From: an uncultured virus (IMG/VR IMGVR_UViG_3300005083_000010)
Lineage: Duplodnaviria > Heunggongvirae > Uroviricota > Caudoviricetes
Virus record (IMG/VR): IMGVR_UViG_3300005083_000010
Reading direction: 5' to 3' (one strand)
DNA length: 64,000 nucleotides
Below, one piece after another: positions 9,005 through 47,167 of this stretch (its first letter is position 1; the number at the start of each line of letters is the position of its first letter). A program made the translations under genes and the position numbers. Under the pieces are notes generated by a model. The model ran no database searches. It saw only the letters and a list, made by a program, of their open reading frames with translations, and was not told where the DNA came from.

Positions 9005-9838
9005 TCATGAAATCATTACGTTCTGATTATTTAAAACATAACTACCATTTGTTTTTACAATCGCCCCTGAATTGATTGTATATGTGTTAAGCCGCACGAT
9101 AGAGCCTTGATCTGCTTGAATGGCGTTTCCCGTAGAAGTTATTGTAATATTGTTAATAAAAGCTTCGCCACCCAAAGCATAAATGCCCGAACCAGAAGAT
9201 ATTGTAATTGGTGAAGCTGCCCAAACCTTTGAGTATTGTACGCTTAAGCCCCCGGAACCTGATGTCCCAAATGTATATGGATAAGTATTTAATAGCCAAA
9301 CTTCAGGGCACATATAGGTTAAAAACGCACTCGCAAGACTTACCGGTGCTGCACCATAGTTACACATTGTCACCCGTTTACAGTAAGAAAAAGTTAGGCA
9401 CGGCAATAATGTTGGTGTTGCCGTACTACCGAGAAACGCTATAAACAAGGGCAATTGAAAATTGTTAATTTGCCAATCGGTAGTAGTCGTGCCGGAATAA
9501 TCCCCGGCTTTTACCCTAACATTTACACACGTCTCATTGGCTGATGAGCCGTAGTTTATCAGCCATGGCGCTTGAAACCTCGCTAATGCCGCTTTAAGCG
9601 TAGGTGCGGCATAAGTAGAACCCCAGTCTATTCCGGTACCCGTAGCGCCCGCTTCTATACATACGGTCACCTCTGTTGACATGTTGTTAAGACTACTCGC
9701 CCCTATCTCCTTATTACCGCTTGACGATCCCACAAACAGCTTGCCGGTGTCCGTGCAGAACCCCGGCTCGCCCTCGTTTAGTGTCGGAATGGACGATTGC
9801 GCCCCGCGTAAAAACCTAATCAGTTGATTCCTTGCCAT
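9005..9838 (-). CDS. Tail fibre/receptor-binding protein (Mtd_N-like N-terminus, beta-rich C-terminus)
   Basis: Same N-terminal module; AT-richer C-terminal part. Confidence 0.75.
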   Translation of the reverse strand: MARNQLIRFLRGAQSSIPTLNEGEPGFCTDTGKLFVGSSSGNKEIGASSLNNMSTEVTVCIEAGATGTGIDWGSTYAAPTLKAALARFQAPWLINYGSSANETCVNVRVKAGDYSGTTTTDWQINNFQLPLFIAFLGSTATPTLLPCLTFSYCKRVTMCNYGAAPVSLASAFLTYMCPEVWLLNTYPYTFGTSGSGGLSVQYSKVWAASPITISSGSGIYALGGEAFINNITITSTGNAIQADQGSIVRLNTYTINSGAIVKTNGSYVLNNQNVMIS

Positions 9839-11525: not shown

Positions 11526-12029
11526 CTACGACACGCTTGTTACTACGTTCTGTTTGCTGAATGTGCCGCTCGAAGTCTGCACCGTGCGTGTGTAATCGTG
11601 AACGTGCGACGAGACCGTATGCGAGTGCGAAGGACCCGTGTGCGTGTGCGTGCCTGTCGCAACCGCCGTCGTGGACACAAGCGTCAGCGTCGTCCCTGAC
11701 AGCGTGCCGGTTACGACATTCACCGTCCCGCTCGGAGCGCCGGTTGCGCCTGTCCCGCCCGTGCCTGTCGTAAGACTGCCCGAACCGCCGGTGCTTACCG
11801 TTTCCGTGCTTACCGAGCCGACATACGACCCCGTGTTCGTTATGCCGTACGCCGCCGTGGTAACCGTAAGCGGAGCGCCACCGTCGTCCGCGCCTATCTC
11901 CACGTTCCCGTTAGCCGAGCCGATGTACAGCTTGCCTGTGTCTGTGCAGAAACCCGGCTCTCCCTCATTCAAGGAGGGAAGGGAAGCTTCCGCTCCCCTG
12001 AAAAATTTAATTAGCTTGTTCCTTGCCAT
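11526..12029 (-). CDS. Tail fibre with Mtd_N-like domain and HxH metal-binding motifs
   Basis: GEPGFCTDTG; THTHTGPSHSHTVSSHVHD. Confidence 0.75.
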   Translation of the reverse strand: MARNKLIKFFRGAEASLPSLNEGEPGFCTDTGKLYIGSANGNVEIGADDGGAPLTVTTAAYGITNTGSYVGSVSTETVSTGGSGSLTTGTGGTGATGAPSGTVNVVTGTLSGTTLTLVSTTAVATGTHTHTGPSHSHTVSSHVHDYTRTVQTSSGTFSKQNVVTSVS

Positions 12030-12052: not shown

Positions 12053-12898
12053 TTAGAACGTGCCGCCGTCTATGCCTGTGGGCACCGCCGCCGTAATCGC
12101 CGCCGTTACAAACGCCGTCGTCGCTATCTGCGTGGTGTTAGTCCCCGCCGCAGCCGTGGGCGCTGTAGGCGTACCGGTAAGCGCGGGACTTGCCAAAGGC
12201 GCTTTAAGCGCTATCTGGTCAAACAGGCTCTTAATGTTGTCCGCGTAACGCTGTGAAAGCGTCCTGAGTGAGTGCGTACCCGCCGTGGCTTGCGTGGTGC
12301 TTGCCGCAGGAGCCGTAATCGTCACCGATACAGGCACGCTTATGTTGCCGCCGGTGTCTGTTACGGTGCCTGTCGCGTTGTCGTCGCCCCCGATCGTCCT
12401 GTTAAGCCCGAGCGGAGTAAGTATCTCCTTCCAGTTTGCAAGCGTTGAAGCCGGTGTCTGCGCAAGGATAAACGTCTTGTTTACGTCCGTGCGTATGCAG
12501 ACATCACCTTGCCCCGCAGACGATAACGCAAGCATTGCCGCCTCCGTGGTCGCCGTGAATACGTCCGTCAGCGCAAGCGAAGGTATCATACCCGCGTCAA
12601 GCTTGCCGTTCGCGTCAAGCTTTACAAGATCGCCCGCAGCCGTGCCGGTCTCGCCGGTCAGCCAGTCGGCAAGCGCCTTAGCCGTTACAAGCTTGCCCTC
12701 CGTGTCTGTACCTGTGGCAATCTGTGCCGTCGTCAGCACGTTAAACGATGTGCCATCAGGATTGATAAGCACCTTGTTTGTGCCGTCAGAGATGTACAGT
12801 TTACCTGTGTCTGTAGTGAATGCAGGCTCGCCCGCAAGCAGCGTCGCCGAAGCCAGATTCGCCGCAAGACCTCTCTTTAATTGAATTGTTGTTGACAT
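12053..12898 (-). CDS. Tail fibre protein (Mtd_N-like, ASPALTGTPTAPT motif, C-terminal DGGTF)
   Basis: IQLKRG..GEPAFTTDTG; KAPLASPALTGTPTAPTAAAGTNTTQIATTAFV. Confidence 0.85.
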   Translation of the reverse strand: MSTTIQLKRGLAANLASATLLAGEPAFTTDTGKLYISDGTNKVLINPDGTSFNVLTTAQIATGTDTEGKLVTAKALADWLTGETGTAAGDLVKLDANGKLDAGMIPSLALTDVFTATTEAAMLALSSAGQGDVCIRTDVNKTFILAQTPASTLANWKEILTPLGLNRTIGGDDNATGTVTDTGGNISVPVSVTITAPAASTTQATAGTHSLRTLSQRYADNIKSLFDQIALKAPLASPALTGTPTAPTAAAGTNTTQIATTAFVTAAITAAVPTGIDGGTF

Positions 12899-15948: not shown

Positions 15949-18900
15949 TTACCAACCTAAATCAGCTTTTAATTTCTTCCATTTCGTGTCAGTATTGATG
16001 GATTCAAGGAACGCTATCTCCGCCGCCGACAACCCGCTAACCGCTTGCGCCGCCTCTACCCATTCGTCCTTGTCGTAACTGCCGTGTCCCTTCTCACCAT
16101 CAGGTTGGTCTACCGCTCTAAGCTCCGCCATGAACGCGATGTACTCCGCCGTGCTCATGCCCGACATCTGCGCCGCCGCGTCCGCTTTTTCTATCCATGA
16201 GGACGCGCTCGGGAGTGTGTATGTCTTGTCTGTCGCAAGCTTGTCCTTCTTGTCCGCGTAGTCGTACGCCCACGCGGTAGCCTTGTCTTTCAGCGCTTCG
16301 TCGAGTGCCTTGTACGCGGCGGAGCTTGTAAGTTCCATGTACACGGGCTTGTATATCTTCTCCTGCGCCGCCGTCCTCGGATTCACAAGGTAGTCGCGTT
16401 CGTATGCCGATAACCCTGACACCTTCGCCGCCGCTTCTTTCTTTTCCTCCGTGTCGTAACTGCCGTGTCCTTTCTCGCCCTCCGGCTCGTCTACGGACTT
16501 TAGCGCCGACCGATACAGTATGTAGTCTGTCGTGGATATCCCCATAACCGTTTCGGCGTTCCGCGCGTCCGACATCCAATCCGTTTCCTTGTCCGTACCC
16601 GCCTTGTCGTAATAGTCGTTCGCAAGCTGCCGCATTGCCGCCTTGTCCGCGTCAGACGCAGACGTGTATATCTTCGACGTAAGCACTTCGTCCATGAATG
16701 CGTTGTATTCGGCTTCCTCGTCGGGCGACACGTAGCGCTTCTCTAATTCCTTCACGCTTTTTGTGTCAGCTTCTGCTTTCATGCGGCTCTCCATCTGCGC
16801 CTTTATCTTGTCAGCCGTCGTCGCCGTGTCCGTTCCCCACATATCGCGCGCTATCATGTCGTCGTATATGCGCTTGTACGCTTCGGGATCTGTCTGCTTC
16901 GCCTCATACAGCAAATCCATGTATGTCTTAAGGTTTGACGACACGCCCTGCCGCAAAGTGTACGTAGCAAGCTTGTACTGCAATTCGACATTGTTTGTCG
17001 CGCCGGTTATGGTGTTTACGATAGACATCACATCACGCTTCACGTTATACACCGGCACCCCTAAAAGCCTTGCCGTTTCAGCAAACAAATCACTCCACGC
17101 GCTAAGCGGCGTGTACTTGCCCGAGCCTGACTGCGCTTTCATCACGTTCTGGATTGCGGAGCTTAGGTTCGCAAACCCCTCCATGTCCATACGCGACACG
17201 TCATAGCCTTGGAAGATTGACACGACGTCTTTGACGTATGGTATATACTGCAATGGATTAAACGCGCTGCCCAAATTACCTTTCAGCATGTGCGTGGTAA
17301 ACCAACCCTCGCCGTCCTCGCCCTTCCCGAAAAACTGCGCGAGCATTTTCTCCCAAAAGCTAAGTTCGTCATCGTCGTCACGCAAGGCGTCTACGAACGA
17401 TTGTACGGCGGCGTTGACGGACAGCGACGCCGCAAGTGACAGCACCGTGGCGGCTATCTTCTTCCGCGCCGCGTTCTTTTCGGTTTGGGTCGTCGCCCCC
17501 TTCAAGTCATACATAGCTGAAACAAACATGTTGTACTGCATTGTCGGCTCTGACATAAACGCCGTTGCCATCTGATTTATCGCGTTGTGCGACCGCATTA
17601 TCTGCGACCGCTGCAATGTGCCGTCAACAACCTGCGTGTTGTCTATAACCTCGCCAAACCGCTCCGCCACCGCCGCGTAAAATTCCTCCGTACCGGGCTT
17701 GAGTGACTTGTGCTTCGCCTTGGTTTCCGCTTCTATCGCGTTCCACAACACGCCCCACCCAAAGCTATCCATGCCCGACGCCGGTGCCATCGACAACTCG
17801 CGCGCTTTCTCAAGTGGCGTCTCGCTGTTAAACAGTATCTCCTTAAGCTTCTTGCCCGTCTGCACGTCAAAGTTGCCCCACGCTTTCCATTGCGCGATTG
17901 GCGCGTATTTAACCGCTTTTTGCCACCCTGCCACCACGTTTTTAGCACTTCCCGGTATGAAGTATATCGGGTTTACCATCTGCATACCGCGTATTATCGC
18001 CGTGGGCTGCTGCAAAATAACGCGGAGGTTCAAGCCCACAGCCGCCGCCTTGTAGTTGCGCATAAACCGCCCCGTAAGACTGCTGTCGTCCGTGGCGTTC
18101 CCCACTATGTCGCGCAGGAGCGTGTCAACGTAGCTTACACCCCGCTTGTCGCCCATTACTTGGTCTATAAGGTTCTTAACCGTCGTAACAAGGTTCCCGT
18201 CGTCGTCGCGGAATTTATAGTTCTTCACGCGGTTAATATCCTCAAGCACCGGCATGTATCCGGCGTAAGTCGCCATGCCGCCTAAATGCTCGCTGAACGT
18301 GTCAAACACGCTCCCGATGTATATAGACGTTTTAGCGTTAGGCGCAATCGGCTTCGCGAAACTTACGTTCTTAAGCGACGGCGTTGTAAAGCTTGCCGAT
18401 TCACCCGCTTTACTGTTAATCTCGTTCGTGTTTACGCGTATCGACCAGTAATCCGGCTCTGTAAACTTCTTGTAGTTAAACACCCGCATTGACGCTTCGT
18501 TGCCCTCGTTCGCGAGCACCGTTGACGCGTAAGCCCGCAGCGCGTCCGCGACCGCTCTTTCCCCCGGTGACAGAAGCGCGACCGCCGCCCTAACCTCGTC
18601 TTCGGTTATGCCGCTCACCGGCGTTGCGCTCTGCTTAACGTCCATTAAGCCCTTCTTGACCGTCGGAAGTACAATACCGCCTGTTAGTATGTGCGCCATG
18701 CCTTGATCACGTTCGCTCAAGTTGTAAAGCTCCATAAGCCCCGCGACCGTAAGCTCCCATTCCTCGCCCCCGAGTGTCACCGTTACCTTAGTGTCCTCAA
18801 GCTTGCGCACGTCAATGTCGTAATCCTTCAAAGCCTGTAGCGTGTATTCCCTTGCGGCTTCTATAATAGCGATCGTCTTGTCTTGCGCTTCACGCAGGCT

Positions 18901-21900
18901 CTTAAACATTGCGTCGCCCTGCCGCCCTAACATGTGGAAGAACGTGTTCGGTCTTAGCATGTCGATTTCAAACAGCTTTTGCACCGCGCCCAAAAACTTA
19001 CTCGCCGTGTTCTTAATCCGCTTGCCCTCGTTGTCCGCCCGCAGCTGCGCCGCCATCTGTGCTATCGTCTCGCCGCGCTTCGCCGCAAACGCCTTGTTAA
19101 CCGTGGCGATTGACGCCTCCACCCCGCGAATCGCGTTCCATAGCGTGTTAAGCTGATTAAGGTTCATATCCACAAGCCGCGTGTCCGCAAGCGCTATGGC
19201 GTCGTCAAGGTACCCCGTGGTGCCATCGCCCCCAAGCAGGTCAGGGTCAAGCACAAAATCCTCGCCCTTGTTCTCAACGTAAAGCCGCTTAAGCTTGTTA
19301 AACGCTTCTGTGCGCTTTGTCGCTTCGCCCGTGCCGTCCTTCACGTGCTTGCCGTCCGCGTCCACCGTGTAATTGCTCTCAAGGTTAATAGCTTCAAGGA
19401 GCGCCGCCACCGTGGTCTTAAGTTCCTCCGGCAAGTGCTTCTTGTCCGTCGGGCGCAGGAGTTTAGCGGACAGTCTGCTGACGTGCCGCTGAATCTTCCC
19501 CTTAAGCTGTGTTTCCTGCGTCCGTGTGCGTTTTGCTTGTACGCGCCGCGCAAAGTCTGCCTTAAGCTTCTGCTCGCGTTCTTCACGCTTCTGCTTAAGC
19601 GATTTCTTAAGTTCTTCTATGCGCGTGCTGTTCTCTTTCTTTATCTCGTCAAGCTTGGCGTTCTTCTCCGCTCTAAGCTTCTCGAGACGCTCCCTGTCAG
19701 TATCTTTAACCTTCTTTATCTCCTGTTGGTGCTTAACGCCCTTCACCGCCAATTGGTCACGGTACTCCGCTCTTACATTCTTAAGCTTCTGCTTGTGCTC
19801 TGCGTCCTTCGCCGCTAACTTGTCGCGGCTTTCCGCTTTCGCGTCCGCAAGCGCCTGCTTATGCTTCTCGGCGGCGGCAAGCTGTTTCATCTTCTGCTTG
19901 TCTGCGAATGTCGGTTTAGTAACGCCCACTTTAGCGGAAATATCATCAATCCAATTCTGCGCGTAACGCTCGATCATTTCCTCTACTTCTTCATCCGTAA
20001 ACTCCATCTCGATTACCTTCTCAGATTCATCGAGAATCCACGCAATGTGCTGTAGCTGATCCGCAGGGTGCGTAATATCCTCGGGGAAAAGGGCGTACCC
20101 CCATGTTTCCTGCAAATCCGCCCACTCCATATCTGTGTACGCCCCGCTATTGGCAAAGTGCAGCCTGCCGAAATGGTCTTTGAGAAACTGTCCGAAATCA
20201 GGTATACTGCGCCTGTCCTTTTGGCTTATGCTAAATGTGCGGCGCTTAAGATCGTCGGCGACATCTTCAAGATACGACGGTACTGCGTAACTCCTATCCG
20301 CTTCAACGTAAGCGCTTGCAGGACCCCGCGCAATGCGCATAGCCTCGAATATGTCAAACTCTCCGTCCTCGCCGCCCTCCACACAATACTTGCTTAGCAC
20401 TTCCATATCCTTGATAAACTTCGTCCGCTCCGACTTCGTAAAGTCTATTTTATCGTGGAGCAGCGACTTCGCAAACTTGTCAGCCTCGTCCATGTTTACG
20501 TGTATGCCCTTTGTCAGACGCGTCTCGTTGCGCCAATGCTCCACACGCTCCGCAAGCAGCTTGTTTGTGTCGTTCAGGCTCTGTATCTTGGTTTGCAGTT
20601 CCGTAAGCTCCGCATTCGTAATCCCCGCAGGCTGTTTCTTCTCCATATCCGCAACCATCTTATCAAACGCTCGGGAATACTTAGCACCGTCCGAATACTC
20701 GTCCACCGCCGACGCTAACGGCTCACCCGTTTCTTCGTCAACAACTTTTGAAACATTTTCGGGATTGACAAGATCCTCAAGCCGCTGTATGATTGAATCA
20801 GATAAAGCTTCGGGGGCGGTGGAGCTCGTTTTTACGGGGTCACCGCTGTTGCTATTGCGATTGCCCCGAAGCTTTTCTATTTCAAGCATTTCCAAAGAAT
20901 AAATACGGTTTCCGTAGTTGGCAGTTTCCTTTACTGTGAGATATGCAACATGCTCGCCATTGAGCAATATAGGCGCCGCGAACCTTTTTATAGTAACATT
21001 CGGATCACCCGCGTCCTTATGAGAAGACACCTCAATAGCGTGCTTCCAGACACGCTGAATGTTCTTAACAACCGTTAGGTGCTGTTTCTCCGTAAAGCCA
21101 TTATTTATTGATTTAGCAATAGCCACATTGTTTGTAAGTTTGCGCCTTTGCTCACCGTTAATCTGTGCCGTTACCCCTTCTTCTACATTAGCTAAATCAA
21201 TACCTGCCAAAGCCTTTAACGCTTCCTGTACGCTGGTGCTTGTCGCCTTGGTGTCTATGCTTAATGTCAAGTCCGCTACGGTCTCCCAATCCCCGAACCA
21301 CTTCTTAAACGCCGGCGTCCGCACCGTAAGCCATTGCTTCGCGTCAAGCTTCGTGTCCTTGCCATTCGGCGCTTTAAGCCATTGCGGCGTACCTTCGTAC
21401 TGCTGACGCACGGCGGCTTCTTCTTCGGTCAAGTTATACGTCTCACCGTCATGTGTGAAGGAGCGGCTAAATTTCACGTCCTCAACGGAATTAAGCGCGT
21501 CAAGCCTTGCCGCCTCGTCGCCGTCCGGGTACTCCAAAACTTGTACGCCGTTGTCTTCCAGTCCACTTACCACGTCCGCGTCCGTTCCTTCCGGCACGAC
21601 CGCCGCCACTACCTCGTTGAAACCGACGGCGCGCGCAGGCTTCGCTTCAAACATGTTGACGGGCATTTCCGCTAAATCGTTGGCTAAATCGGCGATCTCC
21701 TGCGCAATCTCCGGTGTAACCTTCTTATGGTACTTGCTAAGCTCCGTATAAATTGACTTCGGATTTTTCGTCTTTTTAAGCACTTCAACAATATCCGTAC
21801 CAATCTCATCAAACGCTCTAAAACTGTTAGAGCTATTGTCCGGCAATAGGCGATTCAGTATATCATGATATGTATTTTCGTATTCCTTTCGGCGCTCGCC

Positions 21901-24900
21901 CAATTCTTCCTCGGACAGCGGTGACAGCCGTCCCTCGTCCGCTTTAATATCAGATATACTCTTGTACGTCTTTGCCGCCGCCGCCGCGACTACGGACGCC
22001 GTAGGCGCGAAACCACCCTCCGCTCTGTCACCGCTTGCCTTCATTGCCTTAACAATGTTATCAAGGGTATAATCGTCATACAGCTGTGTGAATGTACGCC
22101 TGTTGCCGGAGGCGGTAAACATATCCTTGTTATTCCTGATACCTTTGCGAGAAACAATGCCGGAAAACTGTTCGCGCACCCAAGCCTTGTATTTATCCAT
22201 CAAGCCGGAATCGTTCTCAAAATACTCATCAACCAAACTTCCTGTCAAGCCCTCGTCATACGACGTCACCCCACGCAATTTCAAGTAGTTACGCACATCA
22301 TTAAACAAAGAATCCGCGTTGCCGTAGCCAAAATTATCCTCGGTATATAACTCCTTCGGCGCATTATCGCGTAACTTCTTTGCAAACCCGGACGGATTAG
22401 GGTTCTTGGCTATCGTGGCTTCCATATCCGCGCGATACTGAGTATTCAGCGCGTCGCGCATACGCTTGATTATTTCATCTCGGTTCTCGTCAGGAAGATA
22501 ATTATTCTCAAGGAATAAGTCCTCGCCCATTTCAGCTATGACTTCTTCCACGGCGTCATTACCGAATTGGCTGTTAAATCCGGTCATTTCCGGTTTAAAC
22601 CCGTCAATACCGCCGTCAAGCGCAAACAGTTGTTTTAATCGCCCCGCGTACTCCACGCCCTCGCCAATGTCGCCGCGCCCGTTATCTACGTACTTTTCCA
22701 ACTCGTATTCACGCGGTATAAGATTGACGCCGCCCATATTTAGACTGCGCTTATCGATTATCTTCTTGAACCGCTCCGTCACTGCCTTGATTACCTTCGT
22801 GTCAAGCTCGTACCCGACCTCCGGCGTCGTCGGCGTCCACGCGTCCGCGCCGTACACCTTGTTACGCTTGTCGGAAGGGTTAATCGTGTCCTTGCGGAAC
22901 ACAAGCGAAACGTCGCCGAATTTATTCCACCCATCACGCCCCTTTACAATCGCTATTGACGGCATGGGCAAGCCGCCAAGGCTCAACGCCTCTTTTAGCT
23001 TCGGCACATTCAGGTTATGCACGGCGATTAAATCTTTCGTTTCTTCAATAGGAAACGCCCTGCTAAACTTAGGCTCGTCAAACGTGACCTCATCGAGTAT
23101 CTTCACGGCGTTGTCGTCGAACACTACATAGCACTCACCGTCCTTATCTCCGTTGTAATATATGCCCTTTATGCCGTATTCGTTTAGTGTTTTTGACGCC
23201 CACTCATCATTCCGTATTTCGTCAGAGGACTTTTGGTATCGCGCATACTCATAAAGCTTCTTATAAATGTCAGAGCCCCTATCATAATTTGAAAACTCCA
23301 AACCGCCAAAGCGGAACCTTCTTTGGATTTTTTTAAGAGCGCTCTGGACTGTATCAGGTTGCTCAACAAACATCGCAAATTCGTCAATCATTACGTCCAC
23401 GTCGGGAATGTCCACGGTGAAAAGCTTGCCCGGAGGATCCCAATTTGCGGCAACCGTATTCTTAAACCATTCACGGGCTTTTTCTCCATAGGCACTATCG
23501 TTCGCAACCGCTTCTATGTCACCTGAAAGTAGAAGCTCGTCGATTAGCCCCATTCGCTCATAATATTCCTGCGCCGTATCGCCGCTGCTCTTGTTTGCTA
23601 TACGCTCAAAGCTGTCCTGCCACTCCGACAGCGTTTTGCCTTTAAACTTCGCCGTCCTCTCATATTCTGAATAAACGTCTTTCGCAAGGGCTGTCTGATA
23701 CCCGAGTGCCACCTGCTTATCCTTCGCGAAATACAAGCCCCAACCATGCACCTGTGCGCCCTCGCCGCTGCCGATATGCTCAAGCAGGAACTTGTCAAAC
23801 TTGTACGGCGAACCGTGAAAAGCGATAGAAAATTTTGCCGTATCCTTCGGCACCTCAACCGTCGTGCCGTCAGTTAGCTCTATCTTGCCGTTTTCAAGCT
23901 TCAACCCATTATCAATCGCACCCGGAGATTTTTTATTTTGGGTATTGCTTTTTTCTGCGTCAGGCGTTACACTTGAGTTAAGTTTAAGAGCGTCTTGTGT
24001 CTCCGTCTTGGACGTTACTCCGGGAATACCTTTATTGGTAGGTATCGGGGCGGGCACTACGGCGCTCTTATTCTTATATGCTGTTATGACATAAAGTGTC
24101 TTTAGACTTGTGTCCGGAACGACTTGTGAGACAATATATGCCCCATTTACCCGCTTTTCTATTAACACCTTATCAGCTTTGGTTCCGTCAGCATTATGAT
24201 ACCGAGACGATTTCCCATCAAGCTTACCGTTGTCTGCGTTTGCCAGAACATACCCAATCCGCGCTATGTCGCGGTTGTCGCGCATTGATTTATCCGCGCT
24301 ACCATTCTTACCGTGACGTTTTTGTATGTGGTCGATTTTGTCGTTTTGTATCTCAATCTTGTACCCGCTATAATCACGTCCGGTCAATTGTTTCAACAAA
24401 GCGCCAAGCGTATCGTTTACGGTACCCACCGACACCGCCCCACTAATTGCCGAATCTTCCCCCGCTTCAATCCTGATAGCTCGTTCTAAGATGTCGGCGT
24501 CAACCGCATTATTGTACTCGTCTATGGTCTTTTGCATATTTACATCGGCATTAAACTTCTCCCCCTCCGGCGGACCCGTCCTGCGCGCCGTCCCCGCTTC
24601 GGTCTCGTTGCTTAGCGCCGCCCTGCGCGTGCTTGCCGTAAACACCGCCGCGCCGCCCGCTTGCGCAACCCTCCGCGCTATACTATTCTCGTCAAATACG
24701 TTCATGCCCGCGAACGCGTCACAAAGCATTTCCTCTATGATCTCGTCCCGTGACATGTTCGTGCCATCGTAAAGCGAGGCATACCAATTAGCCAACACGT
24801 CAAATTCCGCCTGCGTGAAGTCCTCGGCAATGCTTGCCTCCACCCGCGCCATAAGCCCCGGGTCGGATCGTATGTATGAATGGAATAGCTCATGATTGGC

Positions 24901-27900
24901 AAGCTGTGTCGCCGTAAACTCAGGGCTGTCTACGCGTATGACAATATCCGCGCCCTTTATGAAACCCTGTACACGATACGATTGCCCACGCTCACTTACG
25001 TGAATATCGCCCGTGACGAACGTCACATTAAACCCACGCGCTTCAAGCTCCGCCTTTATCTCTTTAAGCTCCGCGTCGTCCTCTATCGCCGCGTCCGGTA
25101 CAACCGTCGCGGTCGTCTCCGTCGTACCGTTTTTAAGCCCTAAGTCCTTGCCGCTTACTTCCCGTCCGGATAAAGCTTTGACATTATTTCGTCTTTCAAC
25201 TGCTGTTGCTTTTTGGTCAGCGGCTTCTTCTCCCACCCCGGCTTGTGCGCGGAGTGCCACGCGCTTACGCTCCCCTCCGGTATTACCGCGATCCCCCCGT
25301 TCGGAGCTTGCACGAAGTACCGCGTCACCTCCGGTTTGTCCTGCGGCTTTTCCTGCGGATTGTCCTGCCTCTTGTCCTGCTGATTCGACACTTGTTACAC
25401 CTCCGGTCTTTGTTTCTTTGACTTCTCCAACATTCTGTTGTGTAGTCGTTGCTTTTTGCGTGTTCGCATTGTTTTTCTCTGTGTTCGCGTATTTGTTCTT
25501 GTACGAACCGTTAGCAATATCCGCGCCCCCTGCGTCGTATGCGGCGGTAATCTGATCTATAGTCATAACGTCTTCCGCATGGGAACGTACCATAGCGTCA
25601 TATGGATTCTGGTCGTTCGCGCCCGCTTCATACATTGCGTTAAACGCTTCTGCGTATTCAAACGTATCCGTTGTTGACGAAACACCGCTATTATACGCCT
25701 TTGCGCCCTCGGTGCCAAGCGTGGAAAGGTACATGCCGTTTGAGCCTTTGTATGTGCCGTTCTTCACGTCTGCGACACCCGCCGCGTATGCTACCGCTTG
25801 CTGATACGACGTAAGCGCGTTTGTCGGGTCAAGCGCCTGTTCAAGTTCGGCGTTGTCGGTCAAGCCCTTCGCGCCCGCTTCATAGAACGCGTGATACACC
25901 GTGTCATACGCAGACTGGTCTTGCGTTGTGGCATGGTCAAAGCTGTATCCCTTCTTACCCTCGTCGCCAAGCGTACTAAGCGTAGGCACGCTCTCAATGT
26001 CTGACTTGAACGTGTCAAAATCCCACTCCGCCGCCTGTTCCGTCGCGGCTTCGGCTTCGGCTTCTGCCGCCACTTCCTCTGTTGCCGTTGACGCCGCTGC
26101 TGTTACGTCCGCCGTTGCCGCTTTTTCTACTACCGGTGTTGCCGCTTCTGCCTCCGCAGACGCCGCTATCTTTTCTTCCAAAGCGGATTTAACAATCTGT
26201 ATCTGTTCAGCTTCGGTAATATGCCACGGTAACTGCTCCTGCATAGCATTCATCTTTGCGGGGAAGTCCGGGTCAAGTTCCTCGACAGCGGCAGTATCTT
26301 GAAACACCTTCGTGGCTAATTCGTCAGACACCGTGCCGTTGTTAGCCCGTGCATACTCTACCGCCTCTTGAAGCGTTGCGTTCGTAGGCGCAAACACCTC
26401 TTTTGCCGGTGCCTGTGCCGGTGCTGCTTCTGCCTCCGCAGACGCCGCTTCTGTTGCCGCTTTTACAGCGGCGGCGATGTCCGATGTCCCGCTTGTAGGC
26501 TCAACGGTTTTTTGTTTAGCCGAATTAACCGCGCCTGATATAGCGGGCGCGGCGGACACCGTACCGCCTACGGCTGTACCTATAGCCCCCGAATACAACG
26601 CCCGTGCGGGGTTTATCACGCCCTCACTTTCCTTGTCAAGCGGATCCTCCGCTATCCACGGTATATTCCTACCCGCTATAAGTTTGTTGACAGCACCTTC
26701 CCACACGTCCTGCGGTATCTCTTCAAAACCTTCGCCCAGAGCCGCCTTTAAGTAAGCCACCAAGCCTTTTAACCCGCCCGACTTGAAAGCCGCCTGCGCG
26801 CCGCCGCCCTCAAGCACACTCTGACCGTAAGCGTTGATGATAGCCGCAAGCATTGCCGTAGGCTCGTCGACACCTTCCGCTAAATTGTCCTGATACGACT
26901 GCGCAAACACCTTAAGCCCAATCGGCGCCGTGGACGCGTCAGGGATCGCCGCCTTTGCCGTCGCCTTCGCCGCCGACTTAAGAAACGTATTGCGCGTTTC
27001 CTTATCCATAACAATCTTTGCAATCTTCTTCGGGGCTTGCTTTGCCAGATCCTTCAAACTAAGCTTAACCGCCGCTTTTGCCCCCGCCTTCACGCCGCTC
27101 TTGGTAAGCCCCGCTATGCCCATCGAAAGTACCATGTCCGGCACCACTTGAAGCGCGTCATACACAAAGCCTAAAACAAAATCGCCTTGTGTAGCTTGCT
27201 CCCGCAAATCCTTCGCCGCTTCAAAATCCGCAGCACCTTTCGCTAACATCTCGGGCGCATATGTCGATTCGCTCATCACGTCTTTCAGTTCTTTTTCCGC
27301 TTCTTCGTAAGTCTTACCGGTACCCGCAGACATAGCTAAAGCGGTTAACGGTAGATAATTCGCTTCGTTGTTCGCTTGTAACGCCGATGACGCCACCGAC
27401 GCCACCGTGTGCGCCATGCCTTTGGTGTCTTGCCACCAACCTTTGCCCGCAAGCGTCAGAAAGTCTGAAATCTTTGACGCATTGCCAAGCTCGCCGCCGC
27501 TCTCACTCAGAAGCCTCGCCGCAGGAACCTCGGGGGTAGGCGCGGTCTCTTTTGGCGTCAATGTCAGCGGAGTTTTCGCCGCCGCCGCAACCGCCGTTTC
27601 CGCCTCGGTCACCCCCGGCGTTAATGTCAGCGGGTTTTGCGCCGCCGCCGCCGAAATCGCACCCAACCTCACCGGACCGACCGGAGTAACCGTCTGAGGC
27701 GTCTCCGGCGCGGACACCTTTAACGCCCCACCCCCATTCGACGTCAATGCAAGCGGACTTGGTTCCGCCGTAGGAGTAGTCGCCGTCGGAGTAGTCGCCG
27801 CCGCACTTGACGCGCCGCCTTTAAGCCTGTCAGCCGTGGATTTTAACACCACATTATCCGTTGCTTTCTTCGCAAGTTCCTCAAGCTTTGTCACCGTCGT

Positions 27901-28074
27901 TTTCGGCGCAAGCGAAAGCTCCGCAAGCTCCTTCTGCTTTGCGGCTTCTTGCGCCTCTACCGCTTTTTGCTCGGCAACCATATCACGCGCCAGTTTTATC
28001 TTCTCGGAAAGAGATGTAGTCTTTTTCTTGTTCTCTGTCTCCCGCGCCTGTGCTATCTTTTCTTTAAGTGTCAA
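15949..28074 (-). CDS. Giant polyvalent ejection protein (4041 aa): HExxH metallopeptidase, PBECR-like RNase, ART-PolyVal-like ADP-ribosyltransferase, LPD3-like and other domains
   Basis: NHELFH..EE; DHIQKRHG..DIARIGYVL; FHGSPYKFDKF..GEGAQVHGWGLYF; WLKAPNGK..VRTPAFKKWFGDWE; helical C-terminal ejection region. Confidence 0.85.
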   Translation of the reverse strand: MTLKEKIAQARETENKKKTTSLSEKIKLARDMVAEQKAVEAQEAAKQKELAELSLAPKTTVTKLEELAKKATDNVVLKSTADRLKGGASSAAATTPTATTPTAEPSPLALTSNGGGALKVSAPETPQTVTPVGPVRLGAISAAAAQNPLTLTPGVTEAETAVAAAAKTPLTLTPKETAPTPEVPAARLLSESGGELGNASKISDFLTLAGKGWWQDTKGMAHTVASVASSALQANNEANYLPLTALAMSAGTGKTYEEAEKELKDVMSESTYAPEMLAKGAADFEAAKDLREQATQGDFVLGFVYDALQVVPDMVLSMGIAGLTKSGVKAGAKAAVKLSLKDLAKQAPKKIAKIVMDKETRNTFLKSAAKATAKAAIPDASTAPIGLKVFAQSYQDNLAEGVDEPTAMLAAIINAYGQSVLEGGGAQAAFKSGGLKGLVAYLKAALGEGFEEIPQDVWEGAVNKLIAGRNIPWIAEDPLDKESEGVINPARALYSGAIGTAVGGTVSAAPAISGAVNSAKQKTVEPTSGTSDIAAAVKAATEAASAEAEAAPAQAPAKEVFAPTNATLQEAVEYARANNGTVSDELATKVFQDTAAVEELDPDFPAKMNAMQEQLPWHITEAEQIQIVKSALEEKIAASAEAEAATPVVEKAATADVTAAASTATEEVAAEAEAEAATEQAAEWDFDTFKSDIESVPTLSTLGDEGKKGYSFDHATTQDQSAYDTVYHAFYEAGAKGLTDNAELEQALDPTNALTSYQQAVAYAAGVADVKNGTYKGSNGMYLSTLGTEGAKAYNSGVSSTTDTFEYAEAFNAMYEAGANDQNPYDAMVRSHAEDVMTIDQITAAYDAGGADIANGSYKNKYANTEKNNANTQKATTTQQNVGEVKETKTGGVTSVESAGQEAGQSAGKAAGQTGGDAVLRASSERGDRGNTGGERKRVALRAQAGVGEEAADQKATAVERRNNVKALSGREVSGKDLGLKNGTTETTATVVPDAAIEDDAELKEIKAELEARGFNVTFVTGDIHVSERGQSYRVQGFIKGADIVIRVDSPEFTATQLANHELFHSYIRSDPGLMARVEASIAEDFTQAEFDVLANWYASLYDGTNMSRDEIIEEMLCDAFAGMNVFDENSIARRVAQAGGAAVFTASTRRAALSNETEAGTARRTGPPEGEKFNADVNMQKTIDEYNNAVDADILERAIRIEAGEDSAISGAVSVGTVNDTLGALLKQLTGRDYSGYKIEIQNDKIDHIQKRHGKNGSADKSMRDNRDIARIGYVLANADNGKLDGKSSRYHNADGTKADKVLIEKRVNGAYIVSQVVPDTSLKTLYVITAYKNKSAVVPAPIPTNKGIPGVTSKTETQDALKLNSSVTPDAEKSNTQNKKSPGAIDNGLKLENGKIELTDGTTVEVPKDTAKFSIAFHGSPYKFDKFLLEHIGSGEGAQVHGWGLYFAKDKQVALGYQTALAKDVYSEYERTAKFKGKTLSEWQDSFERIANKSSGDTAQEYYERMGLIDELLLSGDIEAVANDSAYGEKAREWFKNTVAANWDPPGKLFTVDIPDVDVMIDEFAMFVEQPDTVQSALKKIQRRFRFGGLEFSNYDRGSDIYKKLYEYARYQKSSDEIRNDEWASKTLNEYGIKGIYYNGDKDGECYVVFDDNAVKILDEVTFDEPKFSRAFPIEETKDLIAVHNLNVPKLKEALSLGGLPMPSIAIVKGRDGWNKFGDVSLVFRKDTINPSDKRNKVYGADAWTPTTPEVGYELDTKVIKAVTERFKKIIDKRSLNMGGVNLIPREYELEKYVDNGRGDIGEGVEYAGRLKQLFALDGGIDGFKPEMTGFNSQFGNDAVEEVIAEMGEDLFLENNYLPDENRDEIIKRMRDALNTQYRADMEATIAKNPNPSGFAKKLRDNAPKELYTEDNFGYGNADSLFNDVRNYLKLRGVTSYDEGLTGSLVDEYFENDSGLMDKYKAWVREQFSGIVSRKGIRNNKDMFTASGNRRTFTQLYDDYTLDNIVKAMKASGDRAEGGFAPTASVVAAAAAKTYKSISDIKADEGRLSPLSEEELGERRKEYENTYHDILNRLLPDNSSNSFRAFDEIGTDIVEVLKKTKNPKSIYTELSKYHKKVTPEIAQEIADLANDLAEMPVNMFEAKPARAVGFNEVVAAVVPEGTDADVVSGLEDNGVQVLEYPDGDEAARLDALNSVEDVKFSRSFTHDGETYNLTEEEAAVRQQYEGTPQWLKAPNGKDTKLDAKQWLTVRTPAFKKWFGDWETVADLTLSIDTKATSTSVQEALKALAGIDLANVEEGVTAQINGEQRRKLTNNVAIAKSINNGFTEKQHLTVVKNIQRVWKHAIEVSSHKDAGDPNVTIKRFAAPILLNGEHVAYLTVKETANYGNRIYSLEMLEIEKLRGNRNSNSGDPVKTSSTAPEALSDSIIQRLEDLVNPENVSKVVDEETGEPLASAVDEYSDGAKYSRAFDKMVADMEKKQPAGITNAELTELQTKIQSLNDTNKLLAERVEHWRNETRLTKGIHVNMDEADKFAKSLLHDKIDFTKSERTKFIKDMEVLSKYCVEGGEDGEFDIFEAMRIARGPASAYVEADRSYAVPSYLEDVADDLKRRTFSISQKDRRSIPDFGQFLKDHFGRLHFANSGAYTDMEWADLQETWGYALFPEDITHPADQLQHIAWILDESEKVIEMEFTDEEVEEMIERYAQNWIDDISAKVGVTKPTFADKQKMKQLAAAEKHKQALADAKAESRDKLAAKDAEHKQKLKNVRAEYRDQLAVKGVKHQQEIKKVKDTDRERLEKLRAEKNAKLDEIKKENSTRIEELKKSLKQKREEREQKLKADFARRVQAKRTRTQETQLKGKIQRHVSRLSAKLLRPTDKKHLPEELKTTVAALLEAINLESNYTVDADGKHVKDGTGEATKRTEAFNKLKRLYVENKGEDFVLDPDLLGGDGTTGYLDDAIALADTRLVDMNLNQLNTLWNAIRGVEASIATVNKAFAAKRGETIAQMAAQLRADNEGKRIKNTASKFLGAVQKLFEIDMLRPNTFFHMLGRQGDAMFKSLREAQDKTIAIIEAAREYTLQALKDYDIDVRKLEDTKVTVTLGGEEWELTVAGLMELYNLSERDQGMAHILTGGIVLPTVKKGLMDVKQSATPVSGITEDEVRAAVALLSPGERAVADALRAYASTVLANEGNEASMRVFNYKKFTEPDYWSIRVNTNEINSKAGESASFTTPSLKNVSFAKPIAPNAKTSIYIGSVFDTFSEHLGGMATYAGYMPVLEDINRVKNYKFRDDDGNLVTTVKNLIDQVMGDKRGVSYVDTLLRDIVGNATDDSSLTGRFMRNYKAAAVGLNLRVILQQPTAIIRGMQMVNPIYFIPGSAKNVVAGWQKAVKYAPIAQWKAWGNFDVQTGKKLKEILFNSETPLEKARELSMAPASGMDSFGWGVLWNAIEAETKAKHKSLKPGTEEFYAAVAERFGEVIDNTQVVDGTLQRSQIMRSHNAINQMATAFMSEPTMQYNMFVSAMYDLKGATTQTEKNAARKKIAATVLSLAASLSVNAAVQSFVDALRDDDDELSFWEKMLAQFFGKGEDGEGWFTTHMLKGNLGSAFNPLQYIPYVKDVVSIFQGYDVSRMDMEGFANLSSAIQNVMKAQSGSGKYTPLSAWSDLFAETARLLGVPVYNVKRDVMSIVNTITGATNNVELQYKLATYTLRQGVSSNLKTYMDLLYEAKQTDPEAYKRIYDDMIARDMWGTDTATTADKIKAQMESRMKAEADTKSVKELEKRYVSPDEEAEYNAFMDEVLTSKIYTSASDADKAAMRQLANDYYDKAGTDKETDWMSDARNAETVMGISTTDYILYRSALKSVDEPEGEKGHGSYDTEEKKEAAAKVSGLSAYERDYLVNPRTAAQEKIYKPVYMELTSSAAYKALDEALKDKATAWAYDYADKKDKLATDKTYTLPSASSWIEKADAAAQMSGMSTAEYIAFMAELRAVDQPDGEKGHGSYDKDEWVEAAQAVSGLSAAEIAFLESINTDTKWKKLKADLGW
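20765..20880 (+). ncRNA. Candidate antisense sRNA with its own promoter, nested after the LPD3-like domain
   Basis: TTGACA-17-TATGAT; perfect 12-bp stem 20804-20815/20864-20875 enclosing GCGGTG/CACCGC and CGT-TTTT-ACG hairpins; T-rich tail. Confidence 0.65.
23945..24076 (+). ncRNA. Candidate antisense sRNA with its own promoter, nested after the PBECR-like domain
   Basis: TTGCTT-17-TACACT; 10-bp stem 23985-23994/24061-24070 enclosing a multi-stem junction with CGT-CTTGG-ACG; T-rich tail. Confidence 0.65.
25155..25391 (-). CDS. Candidate nested out-of-frame 78-aa protein inside the polyvalent gene
   Basis: GGAGGT 7 nt before GTG; protein-like composition. Confidence 0.45.
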   Translation of the reverse strand: MSNQQDKRQDNPQEKPQDKPEVTRYFVQAPNGGIAVIPEGSVSAWHSAHKPGWEKKPLTKKQQQLKDEIMSKLYPDGK

Positions 28075-33440: not shown

Positions 33441-34600
33441 CTTTCTAAATTTACTAAAATCTGCGACTACGCAAATTTCACATTAGATTCCTGCTTCGTA
33501 GCACCCTTTAGACGCTCCACAGGCTTAACTTCCGGTGCTGCCCACCGTAGTATATTTATCGCCGCATTTACATCGCGGTCGTGTTCCGTTCCGCAATCGG
33601 GACACTTCCATTTTCTTACCGACAGCCGCATTTCTCGCTGATAATACCCGCATATGCTACAAGTCTTGCTCGACGGTTCGAATCTTCCGCAGTACCGCAC
33701 TTCGTTAGCTTTGTACTCGAAATGTCGTCTTATTTCCGCAAAAGCAACATCTGATATGGCGCGGGCTAAGTTATGGTTTTTGACCATACCAGCCACATTC
33801 AAGTCTTCAAGACATATCGTTCCGTACTTCTGCGTCACGTCCGTAGTAAATTTGTGCGTGTAGTCATGCCTTGCACAAGCTGCCCGATAATANNNNNNNN
33901 NNNNNNNNNNNNNNNNNNNNNNNNNNNNTGTGCGTGTGCTATCTTCTTGCGAAACTTCTTTTCAACGTGTGGGTTCGGATATTTCGTGCCGTCCGACAAT
34001 GTGGCGAGGTCTTTTACACCTAAGTCTATTCCAATTTCGCCAGACGCTTGGTTTTCGCTGTCAGGCACTTCGCATTGGATAGACACGAACCACATATCTG
34101 CCGTTCTCGACACCGTTACGTTGTAAATCTTTTCTGCTTCGTACCGCAGTTCTTCCGACATCTTGATTTTGAGTTTCTTCGGCAATCGAATGTATTTCCC
34201 GTCAAACTTTACAACCGAACCGTCTATCCTGAAACTGTCGCGTACACCTTTCTTGTGGAACTTCGGGTGTGCGTTCTGCTTGCTGTACATCTTCTTGAAC
34301 GCACCGTCAAGGTCGTTTAACGCTGCTTCTGCCACCCACTTGCTGACTTCATACACAAACGGGTATTGTTCCGCCTTGATTGAGTTCCACCATCTCTTGA
34401 TTGAGTAATAGTTGTGCTTGATTCCGTTCTTATAGTCCTCGTTCCATTTTGCAAGACAGGAATTGTATGCAAGGCGAGCCACGCCGCAATGCTTTATAAG
34501 CATTGTCTGCTGTACGTTATTCGGATATATCCGTATTTTGTGCGCCCGCTTCATCCCTTATCAACTCCTTTGCCTTTTTGTATTTGCGAAGACCATACCG
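33441..34600 (-). mobile_element. Non-autonomous IS607-family derivative (tnpB + tnpA C-terminal remnant)
   Basis: Flanked by GG on both sides; YGLRKYKK remnant upstream of tnpB; removal restores GGAGG-TAGGACGT-ATG. Confidence 0.7.
33467..34554 (-). CDS. tnpB: TnpB RNA-guided endonuclease (frame split only by the N gap at 33893-33928)
   Basis: HKIRIYPN HTH; GIDLG, LEDL, HDRDVNAA RuvC motifs; CxxC..CxxC. Confidence 0.92.
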
Positions 34601-34618
34601 CCTCCGCTATTAACAGAA

Positions 34619-34650
34619 CGGGGCGCAGAGGCTTAAACCCTGCGCCCCGC
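34619..34650 (-). terminator. Hairpin after the capsid gene
   Basis: CGGGGCGCAG..CTGCGCCCCG followed by TTCTGTT. Confidence 0.7.
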
Positions 34651-34655
34651 ACGTC

Positions 34656-35555
34656 TTAGGTTGATATGTTACCGTAAATCCACTTGTAGTCTGTGTAGCC
34701 GTAACTCCAAGAGCCGACTACCTTGTACTTGATTGCTTCGGTGTCAAAATCCTGATCTCTTTCAGGGCTTGGGTGCCTTGAATCGAACCATTTCAGATGA
34801 CGCTTCATAGCGGACGAATCCACCAAGAACCACTTCTTACCCGTGATGAAGGGGTGATAGAAATACTTAAGCTCGCTGCGCATTACGTTGATGTCGTTAA
34901 GCTCCGCAGGCGTGAGATCCGCCGCGCTCGTGCCGCAAATCTTCTTGCCCTCGTCCCAATACTCAATGCCCGTAATAAGCGTGTCAGGCTGCAAGAAAAG
35001 CAGATCGCCCTTGTCGTCCGTAAGCTGTGCGAGCGCCTTGTACGCCTTGATGAGGTTGGGCAGCGTCAGCGGATCCGTGCCGACATTGCTCTGCGTGTGT
35101 GTCGTGTCCTCCGGTGAGAACGGGTGCGCCGCGCTACAAAGCGGCTGTCCGTCAGGTCCTAATAGCGTGTTGTCAAACGCCCCCTCAAACGGTACAACTC
35201 CGTGACCCTGATATGTCTTGTAGACAGTATCAGCGAGCAGCGCCGTCCTTTCTTCAAGGTGGTTGTACTGCCTGTATCTGAATATATCTTCCTCAAATAC
35301 AAGACCCGAGGAATACTTCCTCTGTATGAACCTCTTCTCGAATCCGAGGTTAAACTGCTGATAGCTGACCGTACCTTCCCACGGCGCCATCTTGCCGATT
35401 GAGCCGACACCTACAAACACCTCCTGTATGCTGTCTGTGTCCTTCCTGTTGTAAAGCTTGCCGATGTAGTCCGGTTTCTTGTACATCTCAGTATCCCAAA
35501 ATTCGGCTACGGACGCGGTTGTTGCGTCGATAATCTCTTGAGTGATGTAACCCAT
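34656..35555 (-). CDS. Major capsid protein (Mu gpT-like)
   Basis: GPDGQPLCSAAHP..SN..L..DDKG..PDTL..WFLVD..DFDT..YGYTDYKWIYG. Confidence 0.85.
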   Translation of the reverse strand: MGYITQEIIDATTASVAEFWDTEMYKKPDYIGKLYNRKDTDSIQEVFVGVGSIGKMAPWEGTVSYQQFNLGFEKRFIQRKYSSGLVFEEDIFRYRQYNHLEERTALLADTVYKTYQGHGVVPFEGAFDNTLLGPDGQPLCSAAHPFSPEDTTHTQSNVGTDPLTLPNLIKAYKALAQLTDDKGDLLFLQPDTLITGIEYWDEGKKICGTSAADLTPAELNDINVMRSELKYFYHPFITGKKWFLVDSSAMKRHLKWFDSRHPSPERDQDFDTEAIKYKVVGSWSYGYTDYKWIYGNIST

Positions 35556-44031: not shown

Positions 44032-44210
44032 GCGACAGCACATCAGCACATCGGCGCGGCGGGCGCATAAAGCAAGCAGCCCCGGGCGGGCGGAGAGAGG
44101 GAAAAAAGGTTAAAACCCGCTTGAAATAGCATGTTTCACGACTTGTTAAAGATTTATCAATTCTCAAAAACAAGTGTTTTTGAGAAAACGCAAAATTGGA
44201 AATTTTCGAG

Positions 44211-44490
44211 AATGCCACAAATGCCACAAAAAGGCACACTACCAAAAACCTCAAAAACCGCTTAAATACTATATTTTAACCTTAATGTGGCATTTGTGGC
44301 ATTTGTGCCTTACTCAAAAACTTTTTATATGAAAGGATAATAATGGTAATTATTTATTTATAAATTCCCTATTTTTTTCCTTTTCTATATACTTTATATG
44401 TACTATGCCACTATTGCCACACAATTCCGGGCAAACCCGCGCCACGACTGGGCGGGAAGGCGTGGCATGGGCAAAAATAAAATGCCACGC
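44211..44490. other. Candidate replication origin: TGCCAC/GTGGCA iterons around an AT-rich core
   Basis: About nine iterons in both orientations, several as pairs 9 bp apart; AT-rich 44320-44400. Confidence 0.55.
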
Positions 44491-46741: not shown

Positions 46742-46743
46742 GC

Positions 46744-46813
46744 GCCGAAACGGCGGGGAGAAAGCCCGCCGTCTGCGGGAGAGTGGCACTCACCGCACCG
46801 ATGAGGCAAGCCA
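46744..46813 (+). ncRNA. Type II hammerhead ribozyme (CCGAUGA core variant, loop I pseudoknot), copy 1
   Basis: GCC-GAAA-C-GGCGGG/CCCGCC-GUC-UGCGG/CCGCA-CCGAUGA-GGC; loop UGGC complementary to 3' GCCA. Confidence 0.85.
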
Positions 46814-46844
46814 AAATAACAATAACATAGGAGGGCTTAAGGAC

Positions 46845-47066
46845 ATGACGATGAGACGAACCCACGCAGTATCATGCGACGGAAACGGTTTATGGTATGC
46901 ACACAAGGTAGGTTTTCCGCATATTCCACTTGCCGGCTCATTTAGCCGGCGCCGAGCGGACGCGGAAAAGCTTGCGGCGGCAATGCAGGCGATACCGGTA
47001 CAAGAGTGGCGCAAGCTGCGAGACCAAGCCAAGTACCGGAATATATCAGGAGAGACTTTTAATTAA
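46845..47066 (+). CDS. Small early protein flanked by hammerheads
   Basis: AGGAGG RBS; 73 aa. Confidence 0.7.
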   Translation: MTMRRTHAVSCDGNGLWYAHKVGFPHIPLAGSFSRRRADAEKLAAAMQAIPVQEWRKLRDQAKYRNISGETFN

Positions 47067-47137: not shown

Positions 47138-47167
47138 AAATAACAATAACATAGGAGGATTAAGACA

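Follow-up and report, generated by a model that had tools for sequence, protein, structure and literature searches.

RNA-OUT of IS10/Tn10 is an antisense RNA of ∼69 nucleotides (nt) that forms a single stem-loop and is transcribed from pOUT inside the transposase gene. The OOP RNA of phage lambda (77 nt) consists of a promoter and a terminator hairpin, is antisense to the 3′ part of cII and depends on RNase III. FinP, which is paired with traJ in F-like plasmids, and Sok, which is paired with hok in a type I toxin–antitoxin system, are constitutive structured antisense RNAs of mobile elements. Here we describe a predicted small RNA (sRNA) that is nested in antisense orientation inside the gene of a giant polyvalent protein, in a 64,000-nt stretch of DNA from an uncultured virus of the Caudoviricetes (IMG/VR record IMGVR_UViG_3300005083_000010; the whole stretch is referred to as the window). 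Phages and conjugative elements use polyvalent proteins as their main multi-effector weapons, and we know of nothing that has been established about how their expression is restrained. The candidate RNA lies opposite the linker that follows the LPD3 domain of the protein. Comparison with homologs indicates that a conserved nested antisense sRNA gene of ∼75–85 nt is very probably real, and the same predicted arrangement of promoter, hairpin and T-rich tail is one that recurs in relatives from many bacterial phyla.

The predicted unit is similar to RNA-OUT in that both are short antisense RNAs, made essentially of one long hairpin, that are thought to curb a potentially harmful product, and in that a host-type promoter is placed inside the mobile element's own coding region, facing against it. 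Unlike RNA-OUT, which covers the translation start of its target, the unit lies opposite an internal linker, at 59% of the length of a 12-kb gene; its promoter, stem and tail all lie in coding sequence and are conserved across phyla, and the two share neither sequence nor an Rfam family. With OOP it has in common a phage-borne, minimal promoter–hairpin–terminator layout of ∼80 nt that runs opposite the inner or 3′ portion of a coding sequence, and it would likewise act by mRNA cleavage and not by blocking a ribosome-binding site. OOP lies largely beside its target and overlaps the end of it, whereas the unit described here is located wholly inside an open reading frame (ORF) and is tied to LPD3. 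FinP and Sok resemble it in having a terminator hairpin with 5′ A-rich and 3′ U-rich flanks, and a target that is transiently needed or toxic. They differ in that they act on 5′ leaders or start codons, and FinP requires the FinO chaperone, while no chaperone, leader or small toxin ORF was seen at this locus. By these comparisons, the element would be a cis-antisense sRNA of a known kind, forming a widespread dual-coded family that is tied to one protein module.

In the main text of the description of polyvalent proteins by Iyer et al. (2017, PMC5512222), LPD3 is a protein domain of unknown function and no RNA gene is described; that main text, external supplements apart, contains no occurrence of 'antisense', 'small RNA' or 'promoter'. 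The host gene in the window encodes a typical phage-type polyvalent protein of the kind treated in that text, with PBECR nuclease domains and LPD3. In the full-text literature on polyvalent proteins and LPD3, no such antisense RNA was found among the matches listed.

The sequence-only reading of this locus had proposed a nested antisense sRNA with a near-consensus promoter, followed by a perfect 12-bp stem that encloses an inner helix and two apical hairpins, opposite a low-complexity linker peptide that would be constrained at the RNA level. The promoter, TTGACA-17-TATGAT, was found at 20765–20793 and matches the sigma-70 hexamers at 11/12 positions (pattern match). All parts of the stem lie at the positions that had been claimed, and the quoted linker peptide is present in the translation. 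The outer arms, AAAGCTTCGGGG (20804–20815) and CCCCGAAGCTTT (20864–20875), pair perfectly over 12 bp and are 48 nt apart. The inner helix, formed by GCGGTG (20816–20821) and CACCGC (20841–20846), is stacked directly on the outer helix, and the two apical hairpins are CTCGT-TTTT-ACGGG (20825–20838) and TTGC-TATT-GCGA (20849–20860). The hairpin begins 10 nt after the −10 box, and its other strand codes for linker residues 2400–2424. The arrangement at its end is of the terminator type, in that CCCCGAAGC closes the stem and is followed by TTTTCTATTTC; the source of this T-rich tail is the C-terminal E-I-E-K codons of LPD3 on the opposite strand. The outer stem of this branched hairpin is absent from the output of a simple terminator scan. 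A 189-codon ORF with an ATG start (20333–20902, plus strand) runs through both the promoter and the hairpin and is probably an artefact of the antisense frame. The coordinates of the features are listed in Table 1.

Table 1. Features of the locus and of its host gene, in the numbering of the window.
Feature	Position	Strand	Basis
−35 box TTGACA, antisense of codons L2435-V2436-N2437	20765..20770	+	promoter pattern match
−10 box TATGAT, antisense of codons I2428-I2429	20788..20793	+	promoter pattern match
Predicted sRNA, ∼80 nt	20800..20883	+	locus geometry; start at A20800/G20801 (7–8 nt after the −10 box) and end in the U tract inferred
Y-shaped hairpin, 72 nt, with an 18-bp closing helix (12 + 6 bp) and two apical hairpins	20804..20875	+	folding
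T-rich tail TTTTCTATTTC, presumed U tract of an intrinsic terminator	20873..20883	+	sequence
Host gene, polyvalent virion/effector protein, 4041 aa, PBECR3 + PBECR5 + LPD3	15949..28074	−	ORF list, translation, Pfam
LPD3 domain (PF18798), residues 2279–2392	20899..21240	−	Pfam, alignments, AlphaFold2 model
FKKWFGDW motif, opens the module	21286..21309	−	invariant in both protein alignments
SKVVDEETGEPL, remnant of the ART-PolyVal N-terminus	20716..20751	−	protein alignment; ART-PolyVal follows the module in relatives

Folding at this site exceeds what shuffled sequences give. The plus-strand RNA has a minimum free energy of −47.7 kcal/mol (z −6.5 against dinucleotide shuffles, none of 200 being as good) and the minus-strand RNA one of −38.4 kcal/mol (z −7.0), the advantage of 9 kcal/mol on the plus strand being due to G-U pairs. 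Against protein-preserving shuffles, the plus strand folds at −49.6 kcal/mol compared with −25.4 ± 4.4 kcal/mol (z −5.5, 0/1000 as good), which bears out the proposed constraint at the RNA level, and the minus strand gives a z of −3.8 (1/1000). When codon shuffles were applied along the whole gene in 334 scan windows, the hairpin was the sole outlier (z −5.85; the runner-up reached −3.15), and it was the best plus-strand locus in a sliding fold scan of the whole window. Both strands also fold as single-stranded DNA (z −7.3 and −6.2).

These values bear on the explanation that the palindrome arose by chance, or that a small mobile element with inverted repeats was inserted in frame. By our own arithmetic ∼0.6 perfect 12-bp pairs are expected per 64 kb at spacings of up to 150 nt, and a second perfect 12-bp arm pair (I5) is located within the same 14 kb; the arm pair alone is within chance, and the whole fold is beyond it. 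As the whole fold is a unique outlier and most of the 94 distant homologs show the feature at the corresponding position, such an origin is extremely improbable. A miniature inverted-repeat transposable element or other in-frame insertion was rejected as a candidate: the linker is of similar length in 10/10 aligned homologs, which indicates that the hairpin is not an insertion, and the window contains no other copy of at least 12 nt. A known RNA family was likewise rejected, since the best Rfam 15 matches in 20500–21200 had E values of 3.9 and 9.7, far below the gathering scores; Rfam 15 gave no match at E ≤ 0.1 in 19 homolog loci either. A tRNA-like element was discarded, as no tRNA was found.

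The homologs were defined through the protein module that surrounds the hairpin. In protein alignments the module runs from FKKWFGDW through LPD3, which ends in E-I-K-K or similar, and a variable linker to a short helix, x-I-x-x-L-x-x-V-N-P, and SKVVDENGEPLVVYHG. ART-PolyVal (PF18760) begins at SKVVDENGEPL, its first strand, in 7/7 homologs scanned. The phage collection contained no DNA match to the locus, and among contigs from viruses, genomes and metagenomes protein identity reached 47% at best. From 238 loci, 118 module copies were obtained, of which 94 were distinct after identical linker peptides and odd lengths had been removed; these 94 come from phages, metagenome-assembled genomes (MAGs) and metagenomes and have 25–47% protein identity. 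The analyses of 95 loci comprise these 94 and the copy in the window. When 43 units were aligned with MAFFT, the mean column identity was 24% and the hairpin sequences were essentially unalignable, so swap and codon nulls were used instead of RNAalifold or a covariance model.

The position of the promoter is fixed among the homologs, on the antisense strand and 5–20 nt from the S codon of SKVVD. A strong promoter, defined as a sigma-70 match of at least 10/12 or a TTTG-N-TAnnTTTG match of 10/10, was found at this place in 45/95 loci, compared with 0–6 of 91–95 loci at 15 control combinations of strand and offset. Two types occur, the sigma-70-type TTGACA-17-TAnnnT and the Bacteroides-type TTTG-19/20-TAnnTTTG, and perfect boxes of the latter come from at least seven different peptide contexts. 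We take TTTG at −33 to be the upstream box of the Bacteroides-type promoter. The Bacteroides −7 consensus is given as TAnnTTTG in a passage of PMC4747536. The 20 Bacteroidota contigs comprise 14 with the Bacteroides-type, two with both, two with sigma-70 and two with weak promoters, and the 35 contigs of other phyla comprise 20 with sigma-70, seven with the Bacteroides-type and eight with weak promoters (host labels were taken from MAG titles in both groups). By these labels and box matches, promoter type follows host phylum.

The promoter boxes can also be traced in codon choice, which was tested in loci picked by peptide alone. The Val of 'VN' is encoded by GTC in 22/23 loci, the background being 20% among 334 other Val codons, and it is this GTC that yields the GAC of TTGACA on the other strand. 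The codon at V−8, whose first base gives the final T of the −10 box, begins with A in 21/23 loci (background 30%), and the Ile at V−7 is ATA in 9/12 (background 33%). In the Bacteroides-type group, the K of 'KDxxL' is encoded by AAA in 24/25 loci (58% expected from background) and its D by GAT in 25/25 (49%). On these counts, selection at the protein level cannot explain the codon choices at the promoter boxes.

Structure was followed across the homologs with 102-nt scan windows placed at 22 offsets relative to the SKVVD S codon. The linker offsets alone fold unusually well, with a mean antisense GC-corrected rz of −1.78 and values below −2 in 45/94 homologs. At the other offsets, rz was below −2 in 0–2 loci nearly everywhere; the overlapping −120 scan window reached 30. 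Under a synonymous-codon null, the antisense linker had a mean z of −2.49, below −2 in 64/95 loci and below −3 in 36/95, and the controls fell below −2 in 3/95 (LPD3 interior) and 2/91 loci (downstream coding sequence). The antisense strand was the more stable one in 81/94 homolog loci, by a mean of 5.3 kcal/mol, while the flanks usually showed the reverse; this difference points to an antisense-strand RNA that makes use of G-U pairs.

Pairing between the two sides of the element is specific to each locus. The duplex between the 22 nt that follow the −10 box and the downstream arm of the same locus has a median energy of −20.3 kcal/mol, compared with −12.4 kcal/mol for the arms of other loci, and pairing with the own arm outdoes all 12 swapped partners in 51/95 loci. 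A duplex of −20 kcal/mol or better was formed by 50/95 own pairs, 42/1140 swapped pairs and 0/95 upstream control 22-mers. The closing helices are mostly 8–15 uninterrupted bp long. No loop motif shared among the units was found, YUNR-like loops being present in 48/100 loops. Changes between close relatives were compared in individual pairs of loci: three one-sided changes and one double change keep pairing in one pair of loci (L083/L085) with none broken, two are kept and none broken in another (L125/L127), and one one-sided and four double changes (L099/L111) or two one-sided and one double change (L142/L150) are kept in two further pairs, with one broken pair in each. As judged from the synonymous-codon null, the comparison of own and swapped arms and the low column identity, structure is kept while sequence changes.

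The geometry of the unit is shared as well. One or more hairpins that begin no more than 16 nt after the −10 box and are followed by a T-rich tail are present on the antisense strand of 72/95 loci and on the sense strand of 3/95, and 64/95 loci combine hairpin and T-rich tail with a promoter score of at least 9. Within the 72 units, the distance from the −10 box to the stem start is 6 nt in 25, and the stem end lies at a median of 75 nt from the box (interquartile range 70–84); 58 are single hairpins, 14 have two or more domains, and unbranched hairpins are found in 53/72 homolog units. Together with the promoter and codon data, these comparisons show selection on the promoter, on antisense-strand structure and on unit geometry, and the nested antisense sRNA proposed from the sequence gains support from the homologs in promoter, codons, hairpin, strand and tail.

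The protein context of the unit was analyzed in parallel. LPD3 was recognized in the host protein with a profile score of 36.8 bits (cut-off 27, E 4.8e-9). The AlphaFold2 model that includes LPD3 has a mean predicted local distance difference test score of 84, which is 65 and 57 in the ten-residue linker blocks 151–160 and 161–170. A Foldseek comparison of the LPD3 fold with the PDB gave no match at E ≤ 0.001 (the best, NTF2-like or DUF4783, had an E of 0.028), so the fold provides no functional clue. The Pfam scan of the window's own protein gave no match to ART-PolyVal, only 12 residues of which are kept; other domains in module-bearing relatives are ART-PolyVal, InPase and MuF_C. In four homologs (L220, L016, L044 and L193) FKKWFGD(W/S) is followed by SKVVDENGEPL within 0–9 residues, with no LPD3 between them. 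As the two motifs are contiguous in some proteins, LPD3 and the putative antisense RNA unit behave like a cassette at the N-terminus of ART-PolyVal. Junction peptides of the form K-F/Y-S-R/I-A/S-F (PKFSRAF, VKFSRSF, AKYSRAF and AKFSIAF) recur between the domains of the giant protein and are possibly processing sites.

The module is widespread. Its profile matches 9,442 cluster representatives at E ≤ 0.001, 3,918 at E ≤ 1e-10 and 831 at E ≤ 1e-30, and most of the 150 module proteins listed are longer than 1000 residues. It is repeated in many giant proteins, with up to seven matched stretches (cases are found among the 150 proteins listed and, among our loci, in L084, L110, L203 and L089), and several antisense RNA units may therefore occur in a single gene. 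The named records that match the module are only six Helicobacter prophages and two Moraxella plasmids, all of them partially. Of three such copies examined, the one on a Moraxella bovis plasmid (L240) has a hairpin with a z of −4.3 and a U-rich tail beside LPD3, in a different downstream context.

For the production of the RNA, its ends and the antisense mechanism, we infer the following course. The host RNA polymerase with the main sigma factor would start at ∼20800 from TTGACA-17-TATGAT, the nascent RNA would fold into the 72-nt hairpin (20804–20875), and transcription would end in the U tract (to ∼20883), giving an RNA of ∼80 nt. This RNA would pair without mismatch with the codons for the disordered linker that separates LPD3 from the beginning of ART-PolyVal, a domain that is lost here. 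The protein linker is free to vary, which would explain why its codons can be used for the RNA stem, and the conserved peptides on its two sides would serve a second purpose, E-I-K-K as the terminator tail and x-I-x-x-L-x-x-V-N-P as the promoter boxes. By pairing with its counterpart hairpin in the giant mRNA, the constitutively made RNA would lead to cleavage (RNase III being one candidate) or obstruct ribosomes. In this way, leaky expression of a potentially toxic effector would be kept low until strong late or entry-phase transcription outruns the brake. A cis-antisense brake is favored because the RNA would find a perfect complement only in its own mRNA, drifts freely in sequence with the linker and has a constitutive promoter of the host type. 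That the RNA gene is real and acts mainly as a cis-antisense repressor of the polyvalent gene is, in our estimate, about evenly balanced with a slight lean towards yes.

Several observations weigh against this assignment. The site is deep inside the gene and not at the ribosome-binding site, so the usual block of translation start cannot apply and repression would have to proceed by duplex cleavage or a block of ribosomes. The branched form of the hairpin in the window is unusual for an intrinsic terminator. Even by the best rule 23/95 loci have no unit, and stricter automated rules recovered complete units in 44/95 and 30/95 loci, the second rule missing the window's own; inspection by eye showed that these two rules mis-set the ends of units and thus under-count them. 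Over the 14 pairs of loci with at least 70% identity, nine one-sided and six double changes keep pairing and 16 changes break it, 13 of the 16 being in four units with mis-set ends. The homolog loci are related, so the counts given above are not of independent events, and the host labels are MAG bins whose phyla were assigned from record titles. Two LPD3 copies in Helicobacter prophages have −10-like boxes and no stable hairpin (z about 0). None of 14 well-known control genomes matches LPD3, hence no model-organism transcriptome bears on the question. Finally, synonymous codon use in the T-rich tail is unbiased (AAA 22/37 compared with 55%, GAA 39/54 compared with 65%), and the tail may thus follow from the E-I-K-K peptide; the sense strand (z −3.8) and single-stranded DNA (z −7.3 and −6.2) fold too.

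The last two points also suit an alternative in which the hairpin acts in the sense mRNA or in DNA and in which promoter and T-rich tail are by-products of conserved peptides. The hairpin might, for example, make ribosomes pause where two domains meet, be cut by an RNase in the mRNA, favor recombination that shuffles domains, or act as a signal in single-stranded DNA. The z of the sense strand was obtained against codon shuffles, and the position of the element coincides exactly with a domain border, at which FKKWFGD and SKVVDENGEPL directly adjoin in other proteins. However, the greater stability of the antisense strand, in 81/94 loci, is opposite to the trend of the flanks, and no protein or sense-RNA reading accounts for the codons fixed for TTGAC and TAnnTTTG. 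The tracking of host phylum by promoter type and the constant spacing of about 6 nt between −10 box and stem speak against it as well, and we consider a sense-strand or DNA function quite improbable.

The RNA could also be real and have its main job elsewhere, acting in trans or with a protein and not in antisense control of its own gene, for example as an antidote or decoy for LPD3/ADP-ribosyltransferase in the manner of a type III antitoxin, as an anti-defence RNA, or in the silencing of polyvalent genes of incoming relatives. Such a role is possible but doubtful. It would fit the fact that the unit travels with LPD3, persisting here despite the loss of ART-PolyVal and on the Moraxella plasmid, that it directly precedes this toxin-type domain in the 7/7 homologs scanned, and that closing helices mostly of 8–15 bp exceed the needs of a terminator. 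There is, however, no conserved loop or sequence motif for recognition by a protein, and no fold, of an RNA-binding domain or otherwise, significantly matches that of LPD3. A duplex scan of the whole window for trans targets left only the cis site standing out, the next matches (−68 to −59 kcal/mol, compared with a median of −35 kcal/mol) being G+C-rich tiles without clear meaning, and the window has no second copy of at least 12 nt. Hairpins that are unalignable, at 24% identity, agree better with pairing to the own mRNA than with a shared partner. A more far-reaching version, in which the LPD3–linker cassette is a self-contained RNA–protein module that has spread among phages and conjugative elements across many phyla, with the hairpin as its built-in immunity or specificity RNA, we regard as unlikely. 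If it were true, the RNA would neutralize the adjoining LPD3/ADP-ribosyltransferase in the producing cell, or let residents silence the effector genes of rivals. It would then represent a new class of nucleic-acid-level control in the linkers of effector polyproteins, possibly with thousands of members, given the 3,918 protein clusters at E ≤ 1e-10.

The window as a whole has phage-like content, with a P22-like portal, three Mtd_N fibre proteins, an M15 peptidase, PolA, VapE and an SNF2 helicase. The Mtd_N proteins, which carry the tropism determinant domain of a Bordetella phage, are encoded by neighboring genes at 9005–9838, 11526–12029 and 12053–12898 (minus strand), and no reverse transcriptase was seen among the ORFs scanned. 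Two further promoter-like sites are associated with the giant gene: TTGGCA-17-TATAAT (25718–25690, minus strand, 11/12) is located inside it in the sense direction, and TTAACA-16-TATAAT with an upstream TG (15943–15916, minus strand) lies just past its stop. Three 11/12 promoter sites in 14 kb are above chance expectation by our own estimate. An IS605-type TnpB/OrfB is split into two ORFs (33467–34554 and 34561–34680, minus strand) among phage structural genes, one carrying HTH_OrfB_IS605 and OrfB_IS605 and the other a Cas12f1-like TNB domain; a stretch that ranks among the strongest folds of the window directly adjoins it and is possibly an element end or a guide RNA. The strongest fold signal of the window (44209–44304, rz −5.8 on the minus strand) is in an A+T-rich stretch (35% G+C) at a switch of GC skew and gene direction, and could be a bidirectional terminator or an origin-like region. 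Two matches to type II hammerhead ribozymes (46743–46816 and 47066–47140, plus strand; 37.8 and 38.7 bits, Rfam cut-off 37) are ∼320 nt apart in a plus-strand gene block.

In summary, the locus in the window would represent a compact RNA gene whose promoter, body and terminator all lie opposite protein-coding sequence and are conserved from Pseudomonadota to Bacteroidota, with the promoter re-tuned to the sigma factor of each host. It would offer a clear example of dual coding, recognizable from constraint at synonymous sites, and an unannotated RNA family of the order of 9,442 cluster representatives could be defined from it. For annotators and protein engineers, the locus is a caution that 'disordered linkers' in such genes can carry a nucleic-acid function.

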